From: Thermoleophilia bacterium
Lineage (GTDB): Bacteria; Actinomycetota; Thermoleophilia; BMS3ABIN01
Length of the DNA stretch: 13,654 nucleotides
Direction of reading: 5' to 3'
Assembly (NCBI GenBank): GCA_041658605.1
Contig: JBAZZU010000044.1
Span: 1 to 13,654 of the forward strand
Shown here: one piece after another, positions 1,557-12,835 of the stretch
Layout of the letters: every line of letters starts with the position of its first letter
How positions within the stretch are numbered: position 1 is the first letter of the stretch
Translations under genes and position numbers: made by a program
Notes under the pieces: generated by a model
Told to the model about the DNA's origin: nothing
Seen by the model: only the letters and a program-made list of their open reading frames with translations
Database searches by the model: none

Positions 1557-3951
1557 ATCGTCAGCATTAAACGCGATATCTCCCGTAACCACGCCCGACG
1601 CGGCGCTTCTGGCAACAGTGGCCGCGGGGGAGGTCGAAGGCTCCGTGCTATGGGCGAAGAAGAAGAAACGCAAGCCCGCAGCCGCGCCGCCAAAGTCGCC
1701 TGCGAAATCTCCCGCGAAGAAGAAGGTACGCCACAAGCAGATTCCCGGAGAGGCACGAAAGCAAAAAAAGCCAACCTTTTCCAAAAGGGCTGACAAGTAT
1801 TTCGACGGCTGGAGCGCGAAGCTCTCCGGTGAGGCGTTATCGGGCACCGACTGGGCGAGGCTAGCGGTCCTGGCTGCGGGTCTGCTGGTGATCATCTTCT
1901 ACGGATTCAGCGCCGGGGGTTATTTCCCGATCCGGCGCAGCTATGGCGAACTCTGGGTTCTCTATCTGGTCGTTCTCGGCCTGCTGTTCAACTGGCAGGT
2001 TCCAGGCAGGATGTCCCGCCTGGGAATGGCGGAGGTCGGGGTTTTCAGCGCTTATTCGCTCTGGATCCTTTTATCCGTGACCTGGTCATACACCCCCGCC
2101 GAAAGCTACAGCGAGTTCCTGCGAGCCATTCTCTACCTGTCGGGTTTCCTGCTTTTTTACCTATATATGGCGCGGCGCGAGTGGCTGACCCTGTTGGGAC
2201 ACGTGTTCGTGACGATAGTGGCGATTGTGGCGCTTTCATCTCTGATGGGAAAGATCTTCCCCGATCAGAAGCCGTATGACTTCGACGCCAGGCTGAGCAA
2301 CCCGATAACTTACTGGAACACCATGGCCCTGTTCGCGGTGATGGCTTTCCCGATCGGGCTGAGGGTGCTGACGGAGAAAGCAACAAATTTGCTGACCCGC
2401 TGCCTGTACGCCTCGGCTCTGTTTCTCTTCCTGATCGTCATGTACTTCACTTTTTCCCGCGCATCCTATCCGCTTTTTGTGATTGTCATCGCCGTATATA
2501 TCCTGCTCTCGGTAAACCGTCTGCGTTCCCTGCTCCAGACCTGTATCACGCTTTTCTGGGCCGCGGTGACAATAGGTATCTGTTATCTGTGGCTGCCCGG
2601 GATGCTCAAGCTGTCTCCTGATCTTGATGAGCGAGTAGGCCAGGGGCACAATCTGGGTATTGTCATGCTGGTGGTGCTCCTGCTGGTGCTGGCGTCGCAG
2701 TTCTTGCTGCAAAGGCTTGAGAAACGTGTCGTTATCACAGTCGAACAAGCCGCAAAGATCGGTCGCGGACTGGCTGTGGCAGGGCTTGTCGCCGTCATCC
2801 TCACGAGCGGACTTTATATCGCTAAATATGGGAACCCGATTTCCAAGATCAGCGCGCAGATAGGAACTTCCGAAGCGAAGAGGACCGAGGCCGCGCAGAC
2901 GGCGGAAGAAAGGCTGTTCAGCCTCCAGTCCGAAAGATTCCAGGAATACAAGGTCAGCCTCGATACTTTTTCGGCTCATCCGATTACCGGCACCGGTGCG
3001 GCTACCTGGTCGGTCAGCTGGATGCAGAACCGTCCCGGCTTTACCGACGCGTCCGGCAAGATATATGACATGCCCGTAAAGAACGGCCACTCGATATTTT
3101 TTGATGCTCTCGCGGAGCTGGGCATCGCCGGCATCGGGCTGCTGGTCGCCTTCTTTACCCTGTTCATTGTGATAGCCGTAAGGGACCTGCGTTTTCTGGG
3201 ACACACCAGGCAACGTGAGATCTACGGAGCTTTTTTCGCGGCCTGTCTGGCGCTGGTAATACATGCACAGTTTGACTGGGACTGGCAGATGCCGGTGGTC
3301 TTTCTGTCGTTCGCCATGTTCGCGGGAGCGCTGCTGCGGTACGGGATGCTGTCCCGGGCTGAGGCGGCGGTGGAAGGTGAAGCACGGGTCAGCAATGAGA
3401 ATTCCGCACGGGGTTTTATCCTGGGCAGACCATCGGTCCTGAGATGGGTCGGCGGTGGCTTGTGCCTTGTCGCCATGGTGCTGGTTATCCTCTTCCTTTT
3501 TTCAGAGACCCGCATAGAGAGTGCCAACGAGCAGACCAGGACGATCGCCGTTCTGGCACAGCAGGGTAACATGACGCTGCTCGGCGGCAAGTATATCGAG
3601 ATGGAAAAGACGGCGAAGTCAGCCAGGAGTTATGACATCTGGAAGGTCGAGACCGAGCCGATCATTCTGCAGGCGATCGCCGTCCAGGGCCAGGGCAAGG
3701 TAGACGAAGCCGAGGCGCTGCTTCTCAAGGCCAGCGAGATCGAGCCCAACAACTACAAGATATACCTGAACCTGTCACGCCTTTATGTGAGCATGAAGAA
3801 TGTTGACAGGGCGGTAGAGACTATCAAGCAGGCCAGAAGGCTGAATCCGCTGGAGTCCAAGGAGATCGGGCCGCAGGAAGAGCAGGTCCGGGCTATTGGC
3901 GGGGCTATATACTACAGGTACGGGCCGGACGGCGTACTGATCGTCGATTAA
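1510..3951 (+). CDS. O-antigen ligase / Wzy_C-domain polytopic membrane protein with a Lys/Pro/Ala-rich N-terminal tail and C-terminal TPR repeats; start codon uncertain (alternative GTG at 1645 with GGAGG/GAAGG upstream)
   Basis: The 813-aa ORF has many hydrophobic segments. The periplasmic-loop motifs 'RLSNPITYWNTMALF' and 'NGHSIFFDALAELGIAGIGLL' are typical of the Wzy_C/O-antigen ligase family. The C-terminal 'KIYLNLSRLYVSMKNVDRAVETIKQARRLNP' is TPR-like. The annotated ATG overlaps the upstream gene by 47 nt, which argues for a later start. Confidence 0.7.
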   Translation: MQNRLKEFTKRFWQAESSALNAISPVTTPDAALLATVAAGEVEGSVLWAKKKKRKPAAAPPKSPAKSPAKKKVRHKQIPGEARKQKKPTFSKRADKYFDGWSAKLSGEALSGTDWARLAVLAAGLLVIIFYGFSAGGYFPIRRSYGELWVLYLVVLGLLFNWQVPGRMSRLGMAEVGVFSAYSLWILLSVTWSYTPAESYSEFLRAILYLSGFLLFYLYMARREWLTLLGHVFVTIVAIVALSSLMGKIFPDQKPYDFDARLSNPITYWNTMALFAVMAFPIGLRVLTEKATNLLTRCLYASALFLFLIVMYFTFSRASYPLFVIVIAVYILLSVNRLRSLLQTCITLFWAAVTIGICYLWLPGMLKLSPDLDERVGQGHNLGIVMLVVLLLVLASQFLLQRLEKRVVITVEQAAKIGRGLAVAGLVAVILTSGLYIAKYGNPISKISAQIGTSEAKRTEAAQTAEERLFSLQSERFQEYKVSLDTFSAHPITGTGAATWSVSWMQNRPGFTDASGKIYDMPVKNGHSIFFDALAELGIAGIGLLVAFFTLFIVIAVRDLRFLGHTRQREIYGAFFAACLALVIHAQFDWDWQMPVVFLSFAMFAGALLRYGMLSRAEAAVEGEARVSNENSARGFILGRPSVLRWVGGGLCLVAMVLVILFLFSETRIESANEQTRTIAVLAQQGNMTLLGGKYIEMEKTAKSARSYDIWKVETEPIILQAIAVQGQGKVDEAEALLLKASEIEPNNYKIYLNLSRLYVSMKNVDRAVETIKQARRLNPLESKEIGPQEEQVRAIGGAIYYRYGPDGVLIVD

Positions 3952-3974: not shown

Positions 3975-4973
3975 CTACTTCTTCTCGTACATGTCCCGGT
4001 AATATTCCTCAAACTCGCCGCTCTTTATCTTCTCCCACCACCAGCGGTTATTGACGTACCAGTCCACGGTCTCCTTCAGGGCTTCATCGAAATCGTATTT
4101 CGGTTTCCACCCCAGGGCGCGGACCTTGCTGCAGTCGATCGAATACCGCAGATCGTGGCCGAGCCGGTCGGCTACCTGCCTGACCAGAGACTCCGGCTTG
4201 CCGAGGATCTCCAGGATCTTCTTCGTTATATTGATGTTGTCCCGTTCGTTGCCGCCGCCGATGTTGTAGACCTGTCCTACCTCACCCTGATGCAGGACGA
4301 TGTCGATAGCGTCGCAATTGTCGGTCACGTATATCCAGTCACGTACGTTGGTACCGGCTCCGTACAGGGGCAGGTCGAGGTTTTCCATGGCATTGGTCGC
4401 AAACAGCGGTATTAATTTCTCCGGGTACTGGTAGGGGCCGAAGTTGTTAGAGCTGCGGGTGATAAGCGTAGGCAGGCCGAAAGTCGTGTGATAGGCCATG
4501 ACCTGCATGTCGCCCCCGGCCTTGCTGGCCGAGTAGGGGCTGCTGGGTTCGAGTATGTCGGTCTCAGTGAAGGACCCCTCGTTGATGCTTCCATAGACTT
4601 CATCGGTGCTTATCTGCAGGTAGCGGCCGACGCCATGCTGGCGGGCGGCCTCCAGCAGCACATAAGTGCCGAAAACATCCGTATGGATGAAGTCGCCGGG
4701 GCCGCCGATGGAACGGTCTACATGCGACTCGGCGGCGAAGTTTACCACCGCGTCGACCTTGTCCATCACCTTGTCGACCACGTCCTCGTCGCAGATGTCG
4801 CCCTGCACGAAGCGGTAGTTGGGGTTGGGTTCGATATCCTTGAGGTTGTCGAGGTTTCCCGCGTAGGTCAGCTTATCGAGGTTGATCACCTTGTAATCAG
4901 GATGCTTGCTGAAAATCAGGCGTATGAAATTGCTTCCTATAAAGCCGGCGCCCCCGGTTACAAGTATCTTCAA
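3975..4973 (-). CDS. rmlB: dTDP-glucose 4,6-dehydratase (RmlB/RfbB), TTG start
   Basis: The 332-aa translation starts '(M)KILVTGGAGFIGSNF' (Rossmann GxxGxxG) and contains the catalytic 'YSASKAG' (YxxxK) motif of the extended SDR family. A GGAGG lies 7 nt upstream of the TTG at 4973-4971. Confidence 0.9.
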   Translation of the reverse strand: MKILVTGGAGFIGSNFIRLIFSKHPDYKVINLDKLTYAGNLDNLKDIEPNPNYRFVQGDICDEDVVDKVMDKVDAVVNFAAESHVDRSIGGPGDFIHTDVFGTYVLLEAARQHGVGRYLQISTDEVYGSINEGSFTETDILEPSSPYSASKAGGDMQVMAYHTTFGLPTLITRSSNNFGPYQYPEKLIPLFATNAMENLDLPLYGAGTNVRDWIYVTDNCDAIDIVLHQGEVGQVYNIGGGNERDNINITKKILEILGKPESLVRQVADRLGHDLRYSIDCSKVRALGWKPKYDFDEALKETVDWYVNNRWWWEKIKSGEFEEYYRDMYEKK

Positions 4974-4999: not shown

Positions 5000-5108
5000 T
5001 GTCTTACAAACTCTTGCCTGTCATCCTGAGCTAGCCTGCCATCCCGAGTTAGCCTGACACCCCGACCTTGTCTGTCATCCTGAGCGAAGCGAAGGATCTG
5101 CTTCTCTC
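5000..5108. repeat. Intergenic repeat element A (rmlD-rmlB spacer). It has about five tandem 18-nt units (period starts 5000/5018/5036/5054/5072; CTGTCATCCTGAGCNNNN, degenerate). It ends in the terminal motif GTCATCCTGAGCGAAGCGAAGGATCT and a hairpin (5082-5108).
   Basis: Direct reading gives the units ctgtcttacaaactcttg, ctgtcatcctgagctagc, ctgccatcccgagttagc, ctgacaccccgaccttgt and ctgtcatcctgagcgaag. The terminal motif is shared with the elements at 6505-6545 (inverted) and 7722-7883. Confidence 0.7.
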
Positions 5109-6020
5109 TTAATTATCATCATCCTTCAGCTCGCCCAGCGCCGTCAGACATTCTACCAGCCCGTCGTGCCAGTCGGGCATGATGATCTCGGGAGCACGCG
5201 TATTGGCGAGCACCGAGAAGGCCGGCCTTGGGGCCGGGGCGCCGAATTCGGCGGTCGTCGTCGGCTGCAGGTCGATATCCACGCCTGCCAGCCTGAAGAT
5301 CTCGGCGGCGAAATCGTACCACGTGCACTGGCCGCTGTTGGTCATATGGTAGATGCCGGGCTGGTCCAGCCGGGTTTCGACCAGTTGCCTGATAGCGATC
5401 GCCAGATGCCCCGCGTAGGTCGGTGAGCCATACTGGTCGTTCACGACTTTCAGCTGGTCGCGCTCACGTCCGAGCTTCAGCATGGTCTTTACAAAATTGG
5501 CCCCGTGGTCGCCGAAAAGCCAGGCTGTGCGCACGATCATGCATCGATCCGGCAACGCCATGAGGACCTGCTCCTCGCCCGCCAGCTTGCTGCGGCCATA
5601 CTCCCCAAGCGGCGCCACCGGATCTTTTTCGGTGTAGGCCTCTCCTTTGGTTCCGTCAAAGACATAGTCCGTGCTGATGTGGATCATTGACGCCGGCGCC
5701 TTGCCTAACAAGCCGTAATCCTCAGCGTCAAGTCCCGCACAGGCCCGGGCGATATTGCCGGCGCCCGTGGCGTTCACGGCATATGCCGCATCCTTGTTGG
5801 TCTCGCAGCCGTCGACATTCGTGAATGCTGCTGAGTTTATAACAAGCTCAGGCTTCACATCCACGATGAGCGAGTTGACCGCGGCGGGATCGGTTATGTC
5901 GATCGCCCCTCCCACATCCGTGCCGGGCATATCCGCACCGATCACTTCGTGGTCTGGCGATAAGGTCTTAAGAAGATCATGGCCGAGCTGCCCGGCCGCG
6001 CCTATGACAAGGATTCTCAA
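5109..6020 (-). CDS. rmlD: dTDP-4-dehydrorhamnose reductase (RmlD), TTG start at 6020
   Basis: From the TTG the protein reads '(M)RILVIGAAGQLGHDL...', the canonical RmlD N-terminus, and is about 303 aa. The six-frame ORF extends further upstream only by reading through the rmlC 3' end in another frame, and no in-frame ATG/GTG is available there. Confidence 0.82.
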   Translation of the reverse strand: MRILVIGAAGQLGHDLLKTLSPDHEVIGADMPGTDVGGAIDITDPAAVNSLIVDVKPELVINSAAFTNVDGCETNKDAAYAVNATGAGNIARACAGLDAEDYGLLGKAPASMIHISTDYVFDGTKGEAYTEKDPVAPLGEYGRSKLAGEEQVLMALPDRCMIVRTAWLFGDHGANFVKTMLKLGRERDQLKVVNDQYGSPTYAGHLAIAIRQLVETRLDQPGIYHMTNSGQCTWYDFAAEIFRLAGVDIDLQPTTTAEFGAPAPRPAFSVLANTRAPEIIMPDWHDGLVECLTALGELKDDDN

Positions 6021-6027
6021 AGGTACA

Positions 6028-6483
6028 TCATCCCATCTGGATATCCCAGTCGTACGGGATCTCGTCGGTGTCGAAGGGCAGACGGTACTCGTCGGGGTTC
6101 TTGTAGTCGTAGGTCTCGGTCGAGACATTGACCACGATTCCTTCACGTTCGCTGATGCATTTCCAGCCGTGATAGACGCCCGGTGGTATCTGCAGCAGTT
6201 TGGCGTTGTAGTCACCCAGGAAAAACTCGTTGACCTCGCCCTTCGTGGCAGAGCCCTCGCGCGTGTCATAGAGCACTACCTTGAACATGCCGGTGATGAC
6301 GACGAAGTTGTCGGTCTGTATCTTGTGAAAATGCCAGGCTTTTACCACGCCTGGATAAGTCGTGGTCATGTAACACTGCCCAAACTTGATGAACAGGTCG
6401 TCGTCGGCGCGCAGCATCTCGGTCAAACGGCCGCGTTCGTCGGGCATGACCTTAAGGTCCTTGGTCTTTACTCCCTCAATCAT
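6028..6483 (-). CDS. rmlC: dTDP-4-dehydrorhamnose 3,5-epimerase (short cupin-type RmlC)
   Basis: The 151-aa cupin-like translation contains 'HFHK', 'GVYHGW' and 'VNVSTETYD', characteristic of the RmlC family. It sits between rmlA and rmlD. A strong GGAGG lies 4 nt before the ATG, and its stop is 7 nt before the rmlD start. Confidence 0.72.
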   Translation of the reverse strand: MIEGVKTKDLKVMPDERGRLTEMLRADDDLFIKFGQCYMTTTYPGVVKAWHFHKIQTDNFVVITGMFKVVLYDTREGSATKGEVNEFFLGDYNAKLLQIPPGVYHGWKCISEREGIVVNVSTETYDYKNPDEYRLPFDTDEIPYDWDIQMG

Positions 6484-6504
6484 TCATCCTCCCATGTTTT
6501 AAAA

Positions 6505-6545
6505 AGATCCTTCGCTTCGCTCAGGATGACAGTAATCTGTCATTC
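6505..6545. repeat. Intergenic repeat element B (rmlA-rmlC spacer): a single inverted copy of the terminal motif (plus strand agatccttcgcttcgctcaggatgac), followed by a partial GTCAT unit
   Basis: The reverse complement of 6505-6530 equals GTCATCCTGAGCGAAGCGAAGGATCT, the same motif as at 5074-5099. Confidence 0.65.
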
Positions 6546-6563
6546 ATGGTGATTTGATACTCT

Positions 6564-7631
6564 TTAAACTATCCCGATCCACGAATTGTCCCCGACCATG
6601 AACCGGTAGGCTTTCGGTTTAGTGTCCAGCCTGACGATCTCCACGTTCTTTCCGATGAGGCTGCCTTCCATCCGGCCGCGCAGGTCCAGGACCTTGCTTT
6701 GCTCCAGTATGATCGAGTGCTCGATCTCCGAATTGCGGATCTCCGCGTCGCTGTATATGGAAGTATAGGGACCGATGTAGCAATCGTGTACGACGGTCCG
6801 CTCTCCGATTATAACCGGGCCCCTGATGGTGCAATTATTGATTTTCGCGCCTTCCTCGATGATCACGCGGCCATGAATCTTTGAGTTTACCACCTCGCCG
6901 CGGATGTCCCCATCAAGGGCATCAAGAATGAGGCGGTTAGCCTCCAGCATGTCCTCGAGCTTGCCGGTGTCCTTCCACCAGCCCTGTACCACGTGTGGTT
7001 CCACACGCTTGCCTTGATCGATAAGACACTGGATAGCGTCTGTTATCTCCAGCTCGCCGCGCGGTGATGGTTTGATCGCTTTCGTGCATTTGTGTATCGC
7101 CGGCGTGAACATGTAGATTCCCACCAGCGCCAGGTTGCTCTTTGGTTTTTCCGGTTTCTCTACGAGCCTGACAACCTGTCCGTCCTCGACTTCCGCCACG
7201 CCGTAAGCTTCCGGATTGGGAACTTCCTGCAGCAGGATAAGCGCATCGGGAGTGTTCTTGACGAATGAATCCACCAGGTCGCTGATGCCATCGCGAAGAA
7301 GGTTGTCGCCCAGGTACATGACGAAGCTTGAATCACCCAGGAACTCCTCTGCGGTTAGTACTGCATGTGCCAGGCCCAGAGGCGCCTCCTGGGGGATGTA
7401 GGTGATCGTCACGCCCCAGCGTTCACCATTGCCGACAGCATCCTCGATCTCCGCGGCAGTATCGCCGACGACTATGCCGATGTCGGTGATTCCCGCGTCC
7501 CTGAGCGATTCAATGCCGTAAAAAAGAACAGGCTTGTTCGCCACGGGAACCAGCTGTTTGGCGCTGGTGTGGGTAATCGGCCGCAGGCGGCTTCCAGTGC
7601 CGCCACTAAGGATGAGTCCTTTAAGATTCAC
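6564..7631 (-). CDS. rmlA: Glucose-1-phosphate thymidylyltransferase, long form (~355 aa with a C-terminal left-handed beta-helix), GTG start
   Basis: The N-terminus '(M)NLKGLILSGGTGSRLRPITHTSAKQLVPVANKPVLFYGIE' is the nucleotidyltransferase signature G-x-G-T-R-L-x-P-x-T. The C-terminal third is rich in hexapeptide-like repeats. The start is the GTG at 7631-7629. Confidence 0.88.
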   Translation of the reverse strand: MNLKGLILSGGTGSRLRPITHTSAKQLVPVANKPVLFYGIESLRDAGITDIGIVVGDTAAEIEDAVGNGERWGVTITYIPQEAPLGLAHAVLTAEEFLGDSSFVMYLGDNLLRDGISDLVDSFVKNTPDALILLQEVPNPEAYGVAEVEDGQVVRLVEKPEKPKSNLALVGIYMFTPAIHKCTKAIKPSPRGELEITDAIQCLIDQGKRVEPHVVQGWWKDTGKLEDMLEANRLILDALDGDIRGEVVNSKIHGRVIIEEGAKINNCTIRGPVIIGERTVVHDCYIGPYTSIYSDAEIRNSEIEHSIILEQSKVLDLRGRMEGSLIGKNVEIVRLDTKPKAYRFMVGDNSWIGIV

Positions 7632-7638
7632 GCTGGAA

Positions 7639-7647
7639 AGTATATCA
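7639..7647 (-). promoter_or_regulatory. Candidate extended -10 promoter (TGaTATACT) for rmlA, positioned so that the TSS would fall at or next to the GTG start codon (a leaderless transcript)
   Basis: The minus-strand sequence ...TGATATACTttccagcGTG has only 7 nt between the -10 hexamer and the start codon. No Shine-Dalgarno sequence precedes the GTG, whereas rmlC and rmlB have GGAGG. Confidence 0.3.
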
Positions 7648-7721
7648 AAATTTGGTCAGATTGCGCTCTATTATCGTTCCGGGGCCGAAACAAAGTACTT
7701 ATCGCAGGGAGCGCGATGCAA

Positions 7722-7883
7722 TCCTGTCAGCCGGCGACGTATCGTCATCCACATAACATGTTCTGTCATCCTGAGCCAGTTTTGTCATCCACGCAACATG
7801 TTTTGTCATCCGGCACAACAGGTTTTGTCATCCACACAACATGTTTTGTCATCCTGAGCCGCAGGCGAAGGATCTGCTGTGTG
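7722..7883. repeat. Intergenic repeat element C (between the rmlA 5' end and the tRNA). It has six or seven tandem 19-22-nt units starting GTCATCC (unit starts 7744, 7765, 7784, 7805, 7827, 7848), most containing the palindrome AACATGTT. It ends in the terminal motif GTCATCCTGAGCCGCAGGCGAAGGATCTGCTG.
   Basis: Direct reading gives the units gtcatccacataacatgttct, gtcatcctgagccagtttt, gtcatccacgcaacatgtttt, gtcatccggcacaacaggtttt, gtcatccacacaacatgtttt and gtcatcctgagccgcaggcgaaggatctgctg. They abut one another with no spacers between them. Confidence 0.75.
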
Positions 7884-7901: not shown

Positions 7902-7910
7902 TGTTATACT
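7902..7910 (+). promoter_or_regulatory. Candidate extended -10 promoter (TGtTATACT) for the tRNA gene
   Basis: TGTTATACT lies about 58 nt upstream of the tRNA 5' end. It is the same TGnTATACT 9-mer as found before rmlA on the other strand. Confidence 0.3.
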
Positions 7911-7930: not shown

Positions 7931-7956
7931 GAATCAGGCATTTCCATGCCTGATTC
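7931..7956. other. Perfect 11-bp inverted repeat (GAATCAGGCAT ttcc ATGCCTGATTC), 11 nt upstream of the tRNA
   Basis: Seen directly in the sequence: a perfect stem with a 4-nt loop. It lies in the presumptive tRNA leader. On the minus strand it is followed by a moderately T-rich stretch (gttcaaattcttcat), so it could also terminate read-through from the MarP-like gene. Confidence 0.4.
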
Positions 7957-7967
7957 CCGCTCCACCC

Positions 7968-8044
7968 GGGCCCATAGCTCAGTTGGTTAGAGCATCCGAC
8001 TCATAATCGGACGGTCGCTGGTTCGAGTCCAGCTGGGCCCACCA
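7968..8044 (+). tRNA. tRNA with anticodon CAT, either tRNA-Ile2 (lysidine-modified) or elongator tRNA-Met, with the 3' CCA encoded
   Basis: A manual cloverleaf fold gives acceptor GGGCCCA/TGGGCCC, D-arm GCTC-AGTTGGTTA-GAGC, anticodon stem TCCGA/TCGGA with loop CTCATAA (anticodon CAT), variable loop CGGTC, T-arm GCTGG-TTCGAGT-CCAGC, and then ACCA. The AGTTGGTTAGAGC D-arm resembles tRNA-Ile. Confidence 0.88.
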
Positions 8045-10108: not shown

Positions 10109-10200
10109 TTATTTGTGTCCCTTGTTCGACGCCAGGATGCTACCAAACACGAACCACGTTCCCAGAACAAACCCGAAGTTATACCAGTTACCGATATATC
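10109..10200 (-). pseudogene. Remnant of the 3' end of a paralogue of the 12539..12835 lipoprotein gene. It encodes ...GNWYNFGFVLGTWFVFGSILASNKGHK* and lacks its own 5' half.
   Basis: Positions 10143-10192 match 12569-12618, about 49 of 52 nt by eye with two identical 23-nt runs. The flanks are weaker but translate colinearly, since both copies end in a basic tail followed by a stop. The only in-frame ATG (10261) lies inside the flotillin coding sequence and has no RBS. Confidence 0.5.
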
Positions 10201-10214
10201 GGTCTAACAATCGA

Positions 10215-12251
10215 TTAGCGCGTGGCTTCCGCGGCGCCAGTGTCGTCTCCGGACCTGGCATTCGGTTTTCTAATAGAAGCGGAGCCGCTGCCTGACTTAG
10301 AAGTTCCCTTTTCTATTCGATTGCTAAGATCGACGCCAAGTTTGTCCATGTTCATCAGCATCGAAAGCAGCCCCAAAGAATTTCCCATGGAGCCACTACC
10401 GTCACCATCTCCACCACCGCCCATGTTGACCAGAGTCTCAGGCACCAGGGGTATCCTGCCCTCCTGTATGGCTTTCGTGAACACCTTCGCGACTTCCAGG
10501 GTCAGTTGCCGCTGAGGCCCGCCGAATGCTTCCGATTTAACCAGGATCGCGTGGGCTTCGCCATCGCCGATTGTCGACGCTTTCTCGCCCTCGGCCCGCG
10601 CCAGGGCCTTGATGCTCTCCGCATCCTGCTTGGCCTTGGCCAGCTCAGCCTTGCCCTGGTTCTCATTCACCTGGATATTTATCTGTGACTGGGTAAGCGC
10701 TTTTTGCGCTTCGGCGGCGGCCATGGCTTCATTGAGATTCTTCTCTTTTGCGGCTGCTGCCTGCTGCTGTTCGTAGGTCGTCATCTGCTCTTTGGCGATC
10801 TGGCGGTTTCTCAGCTGGGCCAGGATCATCTCGACATTGGCGTTGTTCGGATCAGCGGATTCCGGTGTGCCGATAAGGACCTCTTCTAATTCCAGGTTGT
10901 AATGCTGGAAGCGTTCCCGCATGTCTGCCGTGGCTTGCGCCTGTATCTCCATGCGGTTCTGGATCAGCTCGATGAAAGTCTTCTTCTGCCCTTCGTTCTT
11001 GAAGTAAGCAGAAACCATCGGATCGAGCGTGTCGTTGACCAGTTTCTTGATCTCGGCAAATCTTTGGATTACCAGCGGCGCGTTTTTGTAGTTGATGTGA
11101 ATGACTACTGAGAGCGGCAGCAGCAGCTCGAAGGCATCCTTGGTTATCATGTTGACCTCGGCGAGGTTCTCATCATACTGATGCGCGCCCGTTTCGCCCG
11201 CGATCCACTTGAGGATGATATTGGTCGTCGGTACCTTACTTATATTGCCGGCGTAGATGTTGAAGGCATACTTGCCCGGCATCAGCGGATCCTGCCAGAC
11301 ACCCCGGTAGCCGTTTTCCACCAATTCTCCGTGCTTGTAATCTTCGCCTGACTGGTCGGCTCCCTTGGGGCCGATATACGAAACCACGACGCCGACGTTG
11401 CCGACTTCGATCACGGTCTTGGGAAGCAGGTCGACGGTAGCGAAAAGACGGTTGATGAAATACGTGCCATCGGTCAGCACCTGATACTGACGGCCGCGCG
11501 AGCCGCATGCCGACAGGAACTTTTCCGGATCCTGGAAGTTGTTGTGGTATGTTGTCGCATCCTTGGGGTTGTCACCGACCGTGGGGGCGATGATATCCTG
11601 ATGGGAAAGAGAAGGCCCGTCGTGCACGGTGACAATGCCCATCTGATCGCTCTCACCTTTTATCACAACGGGAGCAAAGCCATAAAGATTGGACAGAAAG
11701 GTCGACATGCCGAGGATATTCTGGTCTTCTTCCTCATTGCCCATCGGCATGTAGTAAGTCTGGTTGGCGGTCAGGATCACAAACTGGGCCAGGTTAAAAG
11801 CGTAGGTGCCTTCCCGCAATATTGCTCTCTGAGGCCCTTTTTGACCCTCATTGTTTATATAGAAAGGAACATCCTGGAAGTTATTGCCTTCGATCACTTT
11901 TCCAAGAGTTTGCTGTGGCGGGAGCGGCTCGCCGTCCCTGGCGAATATATAGCCGATCTGGCCCTGGGGTATCGTCACGAGGGGGTATCTATGGACGCGG
12001 AACATAATCGGCGTTCGGAAATGGATGCCGCCGCGCAGTATTTCCGGCTGATAACCCGCCTCCCCGTTGAGCGCAATAATGCGACCCTCGAGCGAACCCT
12101 TGGTTGACCACCATTTTTCCACGATGCCCACCTGGTCGCTCTGAATGACGCGAACGCCTATCAATTTGAATATGACAAACAGAAGGAGGATAAAGCCAAG
12201 AATTCCTCCAATAATTGTCAACCATGGAGTCAGCTGCACCGATGCATACAT
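10215..12251 (-). CDS. Flotillin-family / SPFH (band-7) domain membrane protein, YqiK/FloT-like, with a Gly/Ser-rich C-terminal tail
   Basis: The 678-aa protein has a single N-terminal TM helix (LTIIGGILGFILLLFVIFKLIG) and an SPFH-like region. It also has a long Ala/Glu/Gln/Lys-rich coiled-coil, 'EQQQAAAAKEKNLNEAMAAAEAQKALTQSQ...AKAKQDAESIKALARAEGEKA', typical of flotillin EA repeats. 'GGGGDGDGSGSMG' lies near the C-terminus. GAGGAG lies 7 nt before the ATG. Confidence 0.85.
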   Translation of the reverse strand: MYASVQLTPWLTIIGGILGFILLLFVIFKLIGVRVIQSDQVGIVEKWWSTKGSLEGRIIALNGEAGYQPEILRGGIHFRTPIMFRVHRYPLVTIPQGQIGYIFARDGEPLPPQQTLGKVIEGNNFQDVPFYINNEGQKGPQRAILREGTYAFNLAQFVILTANQTYYMPMGNEEEDQNILGMSTFLSNLYGFAPVVIKGESDQMGIVTVHDGPSLSHQDIIAPTVGDNPKDATTYHNNFQDPEKFLSACGSRGRQYQVLTDGTYFINRLFATVDLLPKTVIEVGNVGVVVSYIGPKGADQSGEDYKHGELVENGYRGVWQDPLMPGKYAFNIYAGNISKVPTTNIILKWIAGETGAHQYDENLAEVNMITKDAFELLLPLSVVIHINYKNAPLVIQRFAEIKKLVNDTLDPMVSAYFKNEGQKKTFIELIQNRMEIQAQATADMRERFQHYNLELEEVLIGTPESADPNNANVEMILAQLRNRQIAKEQMTTYEQQQAAAAKEKNLNEAMAAAEAQKALTQSQINIQVNENQGKAELAKAKQDAESIKALARAEGEKASTIGDGEAHAILVKSEAFGGPQRQLTLEVAKVFTKAIQEGRIPLVPETLVNMGGGGDGDGSGSMGNSLGLLSMLMNMDKLGVDLSNRIEKGTSKSGSGSASIRKPNARSGDDTGAAEATR

Positions 12252-12378: not shown

Positions 12379-12413
12379 CGCGTAAAAGCCGGCATCAGCC
12401 CGGCTTTTACGCG
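12379..12413. terminator. Intrinsic terminator hairpin (CGCGTAAAAGCCGG catcagc CCGGCTTTTACGCG) downstream of the small lipoprotein gene. It separates that gene from the flotillin promoter.
   Basis: A perfect 14-bp stem with a 7-nt loop. The stem contains its own U-run, and on the minus strand it is followed by ttcttg. Confidence 0.5.
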
Positions 12414-12538: not shown

Positions 12539-12835
12539 TTACTTCTTCTTTTTCGAAGCCAGTAAGCTTCCAAACACGAACCACGTTCCCAGCATGAACC
12601 CGAAGTTATACCAGTTACCGTTGTTGTGGATCTCGTAAATGCCCACGCCGTCATCAAAGAGGGAGGTGATAAAAGCGATCGGCAGAATCAGTCCATGCCA
12701 TAGCCCGGCCCAGAAGCCTGCAACCCCGGACGAGCCCGCAGTGCCTGTCTGCTGATTCGATTGGGCGCAGCCGCCAATAAGCACCGCAAGTAACAGGCAA
12801 AGCAACAGGATCGATATCGTTTTTCTCCAGTTCAT
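12539..12835 (-). CDS. Small lipoprotein-type membrane protein (98 aa) with a lipobox, two hydrophobic helices and a C-terminal KKKK
   Basis: Signal peptide 'MNWRKTISILLLCLLLAVLIGGC' carries an L-I-G-G-C lipobox. Two hydrophobic segments follow (GFWAGLWHGLILPIAFITSLF and WYNFGFMLGTWFVFGSLLA). The 3' 90 nt are duplicated at 10109-10200. Confidence 0.6.
   Translation of the reverse strand: MNWRKTISILLLCLLLAVLIGGCAQSNQQTGTAGSSGVAGFWAGLWHGLILPIAFITSLFDDGVGIYEIHNNGNWYNFGFMLGTWFVFGSLLASKKKK

Follow-up and report, generated by a model that had tools for sequence, protein, structure and literature searches.

The elements in the rml operon gaps of a Thermoleophilia bacterium as probable copies of a dispersed, TGTC-tagged palindromic repeat

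The closest described relatives of the repeat treated here are the CGTC-tagged repetitive extragenic palindromes (REPs), a superfamily defined by Di Nocera, De Gregorio and Rocco (2013; BMC Genomics 14:522, PMC3733652). The repeat itself occurs three times in the gaps of an rml operon, within a stretch of 13,654 nucleotides (nt), hereafter the window, that makes up positions 1 to 13,654 of contig JBAZZU010000044.1 of a Thermoleophilia bacterium (assembly GCA_041658605.1). In the definition of the 2013 survey, a CGTC REP consists of an unpaired CGTC or TGTC tag, a stem of about nine positions beginning with the complementary pairs A-T and T-A, a loop of 4-5 nt and an unpaired 3-nt tail with the consensus CCA (PMC3733652). 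The survey describes these REPs as mostly intergenic, located between unidirectional and convergent pairs of open reading frames (ORFs), present in tens to thousands of copies per genome and in five phyla, and it associates no transposase gene with them; the dimers are predominantly head-to-head (HH), with tail-to-tail (TT) pairs rare and head-to-tail (HT) pairs negligible, and clusters are rare (PMC3733652). Besides four named CGTC families, the superfamily includes dRS3 of Neisseria and RPE-4 and RPE-6 of Rickettsia (PMC3733652). Since the survey also records GTAG REP arrays next to exopolysaccharide genes of Thauera and, in Shewanella sediminis, a REP within the rmlA 3' end (PMC3733652), REPs in glycan loci have been seen before. 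The GTAG REPs, REPINs and BIMEs of Escherichia coli and Pseudomonas, which are associated with the RAYT (TnpA-REP) protein, resemble the window family more broadly, as they are also short imperfect palindromes with a conserved unpaired 5' tetranucleotide, form inverted doublets, are intergenic and strain-polymorphic, lack target-site duplications and have a presumed single-stranded DNA substrate.

Our analysis makes it very probable that the three rml elements belong to a dispersed repeat of REP type within the CGTC/TGTC-tagged superfamily, in other words a selfish or neutral repeat at the DNA level; they are not an operon-specific device. The tag, the stem, the HH dimers, the location and the lack of a dedicated transposase are all found in the window family, which we file as a G.A-bulged, TGTC-tagged variant branch of the superfamily, not under one of its four named families, with one of which it may nevertheless coincide. 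A preliminary description of this DNA had not recognised the elements as a known REP, BOX, ERIC, RUP, MIRU or JUMPstart/ops type; in view of the superfamily traits this no longer holds for REPs, and it does hold for JUMPstart/ops.

In the window, the plus strand carries the repeat TGTCATCCTGAGCGAAGCGAAGGATCT at 5073-5099 and a variant of it at 7847-7875, and a perfect copy lies inverted on the minus strand at 6505-6531. An inverted-repeat search recovers the first two as the 28-nt CTGTCATCCTGAGCGAAGCGAAGGATCT at 5072-5099 and its 100% complementary copy at 6505-6532, and the 8-mer TGTCATCC occurs eight times against 0.5 expected, always within the three rml gaps, which bears out the earlier view that all three gaps hold one element family with the middle copy inverted. 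The terminal motif proposed at the time, with a 5-nt middle, matched two sites where 200 shuffles led us to expect none; these are copies A and B, and the pattern finds just these two because the middle of copy C is 7 nt long (CGCAGGC). Tandem Repeats Finder reports 3.9 copies of period 18 at 5016-5085 and 5.3 copies of period 21 at 7744-7854. The elements are arranged as follows.

5019-5072, plus strand: array A, three tandem 18-nt half-units upstream of full hairpin A, at 5019-5036 (TGTCATCCTGAGCTAGCC), 5037-5054 (TGCCATCCCGAGTTAGCC) and 5055-5072 (TGACACCCCGACCTTGTC)
5073-5099, plus strand: full hairpin A, in the rmlD-rmlB gap and antisense to the rml genes; tag TGTC 5073-5076, lower stem ATCCT 5077-5081 with AGGAT 5093-5097, tandem G.A 5082-5083 with 5091-5092, upper stem GC 5084-5085 with GC 5089-5090, loop GAA 5086-5088, tail CT
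6505-6531, minus strand: full hairpin B, in the rmlA-rmlC gap, the exact reverse complement of 5073-5099
6537-6545, plus strand: partial inverted 5' unit CTGTCATTC (ATTC variant), tag to tag with hairpin B
7725-7846, plus strand: array C, six tandem 19-22-nt half-units starting at 7725, 7743/7744, 7764, 7783, 7804 and 7826
7847-7875, plus strand: full hairpin C, TGTCATCCTGAGC-CGCAGGC-GAAGGATCT, read as TGTC-ATCCT-GA-GCC-GCA-GGC-GA-AGGAT-CT

A half-unit of array A comprises the tag, the 5' arm and a 5-nt spacer, without the 3' arm, so that the "about five units" formerly counted there are in fact three half-units and a full hairpin; the six to seven units of C and the one or so of B correspond to six half-units with a hairpin and to a hairpin with an inverted partial unit, respectively. 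All six units of array C share (T)GTCATCC, and CTGAGC is retained in two of them. In hairpin C the upper stem has 3 bp instead of the 2 in A and B and the loop is GCA, with pairing kept. As hairpin B is the reverse complement of hairpin A, its G.A strand is the rml sense strand, and on that strand B and the unit at 6537-6545 form a small palindrome, TGACAG-ATTA-CTGTCA; the same tag-to-tag arrangement is present in the relatives L242 and L249.

Across the family, a full copy is an imperfect palindrome of 25-33 nt, exemplified by TGTC-ATCCT-GA-GC-GAA-GC-GA-AGGAT-CT, with an unpaired 5' YGTC tag, a 5-bp lower stem starting with A-T and T-A, a tandem G.A/A.G internal loop, a G/C upper stem of 2-5 bp that is capped by GNA or GNNA, and a short tail of the form C(T/C)N. 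The stem ATCCTGAGC/GCGAAGGAT thus spans nine positions, of which the sixth and seventh are G.A mismatches. Copies were collected by an exact scan of one genome per species with the pattern GTCATCCTGAG-N5-13-CGAAGGATC, which gave at least 120 loci, and additional copies in the same loci were sought with only GTC, GAG, CGA and C fixed; the conservation of the tandem GA/GA and of GTC...C is consequently imposed by the search patterns and not measured. The unconstrained middle includes GC-GCA-GC, GGC-GTA-GCC, GCCG-CGAAGA-CGGC and GCCCC-GAA-GGGGC, and its upper stem shows 123 paired layers against 49.8 +/- 6.7 in shuffles. Lower stems vary in a compensatory manner, from ATCCT/AGGAT (309), ATTCT/AGAAT (53) and ATGCT/AGCAT (11) to the rarer ATTCC/GGAAT (7), ATCCC/GGGAT (6) and GTCCT/AGGAC (6). 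Among 149 distinct 28-mers anchored on GTC/GAG/CGA/C, pairing is found in 94.5% of cells, compared with 19-48% in slid controls; six of the seven pairs show changes on both sides, and cells with a double change number 61 against 8.9 +/- 2.6 in shuffles. Pairing in the family has thereby been shown to be kept by compensatory changes.

In these 149 copies, position 1 of the stem is A-T in 129 and position 2 is T-A in 140. Of 415 copies whose arm is fully paired, 320 have T and 58 have C in front of GTC (TGTC in all window copies), and the tail is C followed by T or C, as CTC (172), CTG (60), CTA (48), CTT (46) or CCC (31). The commonest apex is C-GNA-G, in 142 of 320 copies, and the internal loop reads 5'-YGAR-3' on both strands, a context favouring sheared G.A pairs. 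Sheared G.A pairs and the GNA mini-hairpin are both very stable in DNA. Hirao, Yoshizawa and colleagues are said to have established d(GCGAAGC)/GNA mini-hairpins and tandem sheared G.A pairs as DNA structural motifs, and the GNA apex and 5'-YGAR-3' loop of the window family recall them, although those are biophysical motifs rather than genetic elements and are here read from the sequence. The question of which strand folds was approached through G.T versus A.C mismatches, with few informative cases; A.C at the stem base (16 cases) hints at folding of the other strand.

The family is found in at least 15 phyla, in genome, viral and metagenome contigs. By record labels, the at least 120 genome loci belong to Chloroflexota, Acidobacteriota, Saccharibacteria and other members of the Candidate Phyla Radiation (CPR), Bacillota, Bacteroidota (including Rhodothermales), Planctomycetota, Omnitrophota, Gemmatimonadota, Nitrospirota, Cyanobacteria, Verrucomicrobiota, Fibrobacter, Bdellovibrionales, Alphaproteobacteria and a "delta proteobacterium"; the window itself, whose RmlA homologues at 84-86% identity are from Thermoleophilia, adds Actinomycetota. 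The repeat also occurs on plasmids of cultured Planktothrix, Gloeothece, Hymenobacter, Granulicella, Nostoc and Phocaeicola and in at least 120 IMG/VR viral contigs, and in cultured-phage records hardly at all. In a separate look at replication-strand bias by GC skew, 76 of 95 viral loci (L122-L241) have the G.A strand on the C-rich side, and in 63 of 96 it runs antisense to the majority of genes; outside viruses the C-rich-strand bias is weak in genome loci (51:32) and not significant in metagenome arrays (48:36), and the antisense tally in genome loci is 45:38.

Copies are mainly intergenic, most of the "genic" matches lying in short spurious ORFs or at ORF ends. A crude ORF caller placed 110 of them in sense and 93 in antisense where the flanking genes are co-directional; convergent gene pairs enclose 51 and divergent pairs 28. 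Up to 4-6 copies can occur within 8 kb at other loci. No recurrent gene family was seen beside copies or between two copies in the loci listed, and when 344 neighbouring ORFs were compared with Pfam no family appeared more than twice, the hits ranging from ribosomal protein S2 and RuvB to phage capsid proteins. Neither a RAYT nor a Y1 transposase was seen in the neighbourhood of about 400 copies, whether adjoining or between them. The preliminary description had proposed looking for the motif elsewhere; it proves to be dispersed and mostly intergenic, with unrelated flanking genes. Dimers within 150 nt comprise 73 distinct HH pairs, in which the tags point outwards, 25 TT and 27 HT pairs; the flanks of the HH dimers extend the palindrome, and their spacers, mostly 10-40 nt long, have no common sequence. 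Literature searches with the sequence and with the encoded peptides returned only unrelated primers or nothing.

The tandem 5'-half arrays of the window are a family trait and not a local oddity. Within 120 nt upstream of copies, GTCATCC on the same strand occurs 155 times where about 58 would be expected, with a spacing peak at 19-22 nt, and a metagenome scan for three tandem 5' units (at least 120 loci) yielded 123 complete arrays of 3-20 units. In 113 of these, one complete hairpin stands at the 3' end, most of the other ten ending in a degenerate hairpin, and only one of 441 inner units is complete. The period is 21 nt in 48 arrays, 20 nt in 25, 18 nt in 20, 22 nt in 14 and 19 nt in 11. 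The repeated segment starts 0-9 nt before the tag. Of 109 arrays in which its right end was determined, 40 break off immediately after GAGC, 42 within the upper stem or loop and 12 in the 3' CGA, which puts 94 breakpoints in the apex or the 3' CGA; only 5 arrays break in the 3' lower arm. A search for arrays of 3' halves gave just three matches, all of them to a single coding Ser/Glu/Gly repeat that has nothing to do with the element. If the identical 5' units changed in number by slippage or unequal exchange, no second full hairpin could be made, and a single one would be kept at the 3' end. In a first small sample, seven of nine arrays faced the start of a gene; this was chance, as roughly 100 arrays show no preference of orientation relative to neighbouring genes (51:56 and 51:49). 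The REP literature searched contains no description of such polarity. Three features may be new, namely the very wide range of the repeat, its invariant combination of G.A and GNA, and the polarity of its half-unit arrays.

When the window family is set beside the CGTC REPs, the two agree in the excess of convergent over divergent sites and in the presence in several phyla, and broadly in having a short loop and a short conserved tail, with departures in loop length and tail sequence. In our back-translation, the CGTC-1 peptide VIPAKAGI, one of those given in the survey for intragenic copies, would be encoded by GTCATTCCCGCGAAAGCGGGAATC, with the same frame of GTCAT, stem, loop, stem and ATC. 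No peptide in the survey's supplement corresponds to the window family, which would read VILSEAKDL (PMC3733652). The window stem, unlike that of CGTC REPs, is interrupted by the tandem G.A/A.G, the tail is CTN or CCN instead of CCA, polar 5'-half arrays take the place of rare clusters, and the family extends to many more phyla (Actinomycetota, Chloroflexota, Acidobacteriota, CPR, Bacillota) and to viral contigs. From GTAG REPs it differs in the tag (YGTC instead of GTAG), in the absence of a flanking RAYT near copies, though a single distant one per genome is possible, and in its near-identity between phyla, GTAG REPs being for the most part confined to a species or genus.

Several points weigh against an assignment to the superfamily and against a purely dispersed, selfish repeat. 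The loops are mostly of 3-4 nt, GNA or GNNA, compared with the published 4-5 nt, and reach 5 nt if the C-G pair is not counted as stem; the TT and HT dimers, at 25 and 27 against 73 HH, are not rare, in contrast to those of the published CGTC REPs. Single hairpins are predicted to fold about as well as shuffled sequences, both as RNA (-7.0 kcal/mol, z = -0.16) and as DNA (-2.7, z = 0.12), and because these energies are unremarkable the structural case rests on covariation and on the known stability of G.A and GNA motifs, to which the energy model may give too little weight. All three copies in 22.4 kb of the source contig lie at rml, and a local, selected role of the repeat in this operon is possible. 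Finally, our searches found no mobilising enzyme and no direct evidence of movement, the propagation step being drawn by analogy.

The history of the gaps can be followed in relatives of the window, for which the rml loci L242-L246 and L249-L251 were fetched and the gaps compared, identity being that of RmlA. In the window, the operon and its surroundings comprise the following features.

3975-4973, minus strand: rmlB
5109-6020, minus strand: rmlD
6028-6483, minus strand: rmlC
6564-7631, minus strand: rmlA, long form, with a GTG start
7639-7647, minus strand: TGnTATACT box (extended -10-like), 7 nt before the rmlA GTG
7902-7910, plus strand: TGnTATACT box (extended -10-like), about 58 nt before tRNA-Met
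7968-8044, plus strand: tRNA-Met

The spacers measure 135 nt between rmlB and rmlD, 7 nt between rmlD and rmlC and 80 nt between rmlC and rmlA, in agreement with the layout and the 7- and 135-nt gaps given previously. At 89% identity, L243 has 15-nt gaps at both sites without the element; at 86%, the gaps of L244 (97, 39 and 34 nt) are free of the motif; and at 84%, L245 and L246 have a 36-nt rmlA-rmlC gap and overlapping rmlC, rmlD and rmlB, again without the element. Within the clade of at least 95% identity (the window, L242, L249 and L250/L251, with L242, L249 and L250 at 95-96%), every site reached by the contigs is occupied, and never alike. Half-units at site C number six in the window, at least 13 in L242 (including five perfect 22-mers) and no more than one in L250, and L249 retains remnants only. 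Site B has a single copy in the window, a head-to-head heterodimer in L242, a degenerate copy of opposite orientation in L250 and, in L249, an inverted copy nested in a loop plus a partner. At site A the units are 18 nt long in the window; L242 has six of 21 nt there and L249 a chimeric remnant, and the contigs of L250 and L251 do not extend that far. The hairpin apex at the orthologous site C is GCC-GCA-GGC in the window and GC-GAA-GC in L250, with identical flanks. Empty gaps at 84-89% identity and divergent occupancy at 95% or more indicate that the elements are insertions into a formerly compact operon with fast turnover, and the comparison of unit numbers among relatives that had been suggested earlier gives array lengths from 0-1 to at least 13 and unit lengths of 18 versus 21 nt. 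The L249 case also stands by itself as an observation, since at 2235-2379 a copy, GTCATCCTGAGC-ccttcgcttcgctcgaggat...-CGAAGGATCT, has an inverted copy of the repeat nested in its loop, which suggests insertion or recombination at the hairpin apex.

These data bear on the three explanations that the preliminary description had left side by side, namely a small mobile or recombinogenic REP- or MITE-like element (MITE, miniature inverted-repeat transposable element), a cis-regulatory RNA module and a locus-specific protein-binding array. The first is upheld in its REP form by the dispersal over many phyla, the absence in relatives at 84-89% and the rearrangement at 95% or more, and it fails in its MITE form with the lack of target-site duplications at the 73 HH dimers; the other two are not borne out. 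As a REP-type repeat, the element would act as DNA and not as a regulator, with its G.A strand folding when single-stranded, and copies would spread through a trans-acting activity, by analogy with REPs and RAYT nucleases. An array would start with one short duplication reaching from just 5' of the tag to the hairpin apex and would then grow or shrink by slippage or unequal exchange. The effect on the operon would be a by-product, as hairpin spacers of 80 and 135 nt replace overlaps or 15-nt junctions; before insertion, the rml operon was probably translationally coupled, judging from the compact relatives, and with such spacers rmlC and rmlB would be translated from their own GGAGGA sites. 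The hairpins may also alter the local decay or stability of rml mRNA segments. It is conceivable, if rather doubtful, that the G.A-bulged TGTC hairpin is the recognition site of a widespread single-strand DNA nuclease or recombinase, or of a universal apex-cutting repair or replication activity; if it were, the polar arrays and the nested and chimeric copies would be footprints of apex cutting, and the repeat would be a pan-bacterial system with its own propagation mechanism instead of a passive palindrome.

For the rml operon, the placement removes a false lead, as the repeat is no rml-specific regulator, and it draws attention to an insertion that would turn overlapping, coupled genes into separately initiated ones. 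A very common and apparently unnamed metagenomic repeat finds a place in the REP superfamily without a known mobilising enzyme, and for the REP field it adds near-identity over about 25 nt across at least 15 phyla and viral contigs. A tandem G.A below a GNA apex suggests that one particular strand folds, and the strict polarity of the half-unit arrays constrains models of how such repeats originate and change. In annotation, copies give rise to spurious short ORFs such as RSFASLRMT and VILSEAKDL, and also to hypervariable mini-arrays, which could be used as strain markers.

One alternative, which we regard as very improbable, is that the elements form a cis-acting RNA module of the rml transcript, be it a stabiliser, a processing site, an attenuator or a ribosome stand-by site made of the hairpin and GGAUGAC units resembling Shine-Dalgarno sequences. 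A and B do lie inside a presumed polycistronic mRNA, gap B (6484-6563) folds better than shuffled sequence on the minus strand (z = -2.3) and has UCUUUUU after the hairpin, array A repeats AGGAUGA on the rml sense strand shortly before the start of rmlB, and the first sample of nine arrays, seven of which faced a gene start, spoke in the same direction. REPs of E. coli are known to affect mRNA decay. Yet sense and antisense copies are about equally frequent (110:93), the roughly 100 arrays have no preference for gene starts, A and B have opposite orientations within one mRNA, and the sense strand of region A is not unusually structured (z = +1.5). Hairpin C lies between the divergent tRNA-Met and rmlA boxes, and being upstream of both conserved boxes it is probably not transcribed. 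A module of the rml transcript would also be hard to reconcile with its absence in the relatives at 84-89% RmlA identity and its radically different forms among those at 95% or more, and no Rfam match was obtained at E <= 1.

Likewise very improbable is a conventional MITE, in which the HH pairs would be the terminal inverted repeats of a deleted insertion sequence mobilised by a DDE transposase, and the single copies its solo ends. The frequency of HH pairs with short spacers and the insertion polymorphism among relatives would be expected of such an element. MITEs such as the Correia elements of Neisseria are also small, non-coding and dispersed with inverted ends, can sit in operons and can change expression. 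However, none of the 73 HH dimers has a direct repeat of 2-6 nt at its immediate flanks (offset 0), where 4.6 would be expected for 2-mers, and the flanks extend the palindrome instead. The spacers lack any common sequence, single copies and half-unit arrays outnumber pairs, DDE transposases occur once each among the 344 neighbouring ORFs, and a terminal repeat bound by a transposase would not be expected to show the covariation that lies within each "end". The family thus differs from the Correia type of MITE in lacking a target-site duplication, a conserved internal sequence and a cognate transposase.

Hardly credible is a protein-binding array in which iteron- or operator-like TGTCATCC sites two helical turns apart control the polysaccharide locus, for although the 8-mer does recur at 18-22 bp and array C does stand between two divergent promoter boxes, the same 8-mer arrays are found in more than 120 metagenome contigs beside unrelated genes in any orientation, their units vary in number and sequence among relatives at 95%, L249 and L250 lack arrays, the neighbouring ORFs include no linked regulator gene, and the constant attachment of arrays to a complete hairpin points to the way arrays originate and not to a spacing rule for a regulator.

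Other candidates were tried and set aside. For JUMPstart/ops there is no Rfam match at E <= 1, the sole exact GGCGGTAG is at 3810 in a Wzy-like gene, and one-mismatch matches (14 versus 10.4 in shuffles) are not enriched. A CRISPR array would have repeats of at least 23 nt and unique spacers, whereas the units here total 18-22 nt and their 5-10-nt "spacers" are identical within an array. RSFASLRMT, from the reverse translation, is presumably also found at the N-termini of small GIY-YIG proteins, and a link with these was rejected, with one weak motif match in 120 loci that is not in a GIY-YIG gene and no cluster of such genes. A hammerhead or k-turn reading of CUGA...GAA lacks the GA after N7, a 3-nt bulge and an Rfam match, and a CsrA sponge or ribosome stand-by reading of the CAGGAUGA units meets arrays without an orientation rule. 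To our knowledge, some phyla with the motif lack CsrA.

Regarding the surroundings of the elements, both TGnTATACT boxes are kept in the relatives L243-L250 and stand back to back where the repeat is absent (L243). From their sequence and position they are inferred to be extended -10 promoters of tRNA-Met and of rmlA, whose mRNA is perhaps leaderless because the box lies only 7 nt before the GTG. Between the promoter box and tRNA-Met, a perfect 11-bp hairpin, GAATCAGGCAT-TTCC-ATGCCTGATTC, occupies 7931-7956; its counterparts in L249 and L250 have GAATTAAG.../GAATCAAG... versions with pairing retained, and it may be a conserved tRNA-leader structure, not related to the repeat. Farther along the window, a 73-nt direct repeat (10121-10193 and 12548-12620, 89% identical) represents the 3' end of a 98-aa membrane-protein gene (12539-12835, minus strand) copied downstream of a Band_7 (flotillin-like) gene (10215-12251, minus strand). 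Between these two genes, a perfect 14-bp inverted repeat, CGCGTAAAAGCCGG-n7-CCGGCTTTTACGCG, lies at 12379-12413, its sole Rfam match being weak and below threshold (rpfG, E = 0.39). The DNA past tRNA-Met is different in every relative (L244 8279-9811, L245 9047-9629, L249 125-707, L250 2463-2765) and holds a serine recombinase with PIN/RHH genes, ParE/PhD toxin-antitoxin pairs or HepT, so that this flank looks like an integration or variable hot spot adjoining the glycan cluster.

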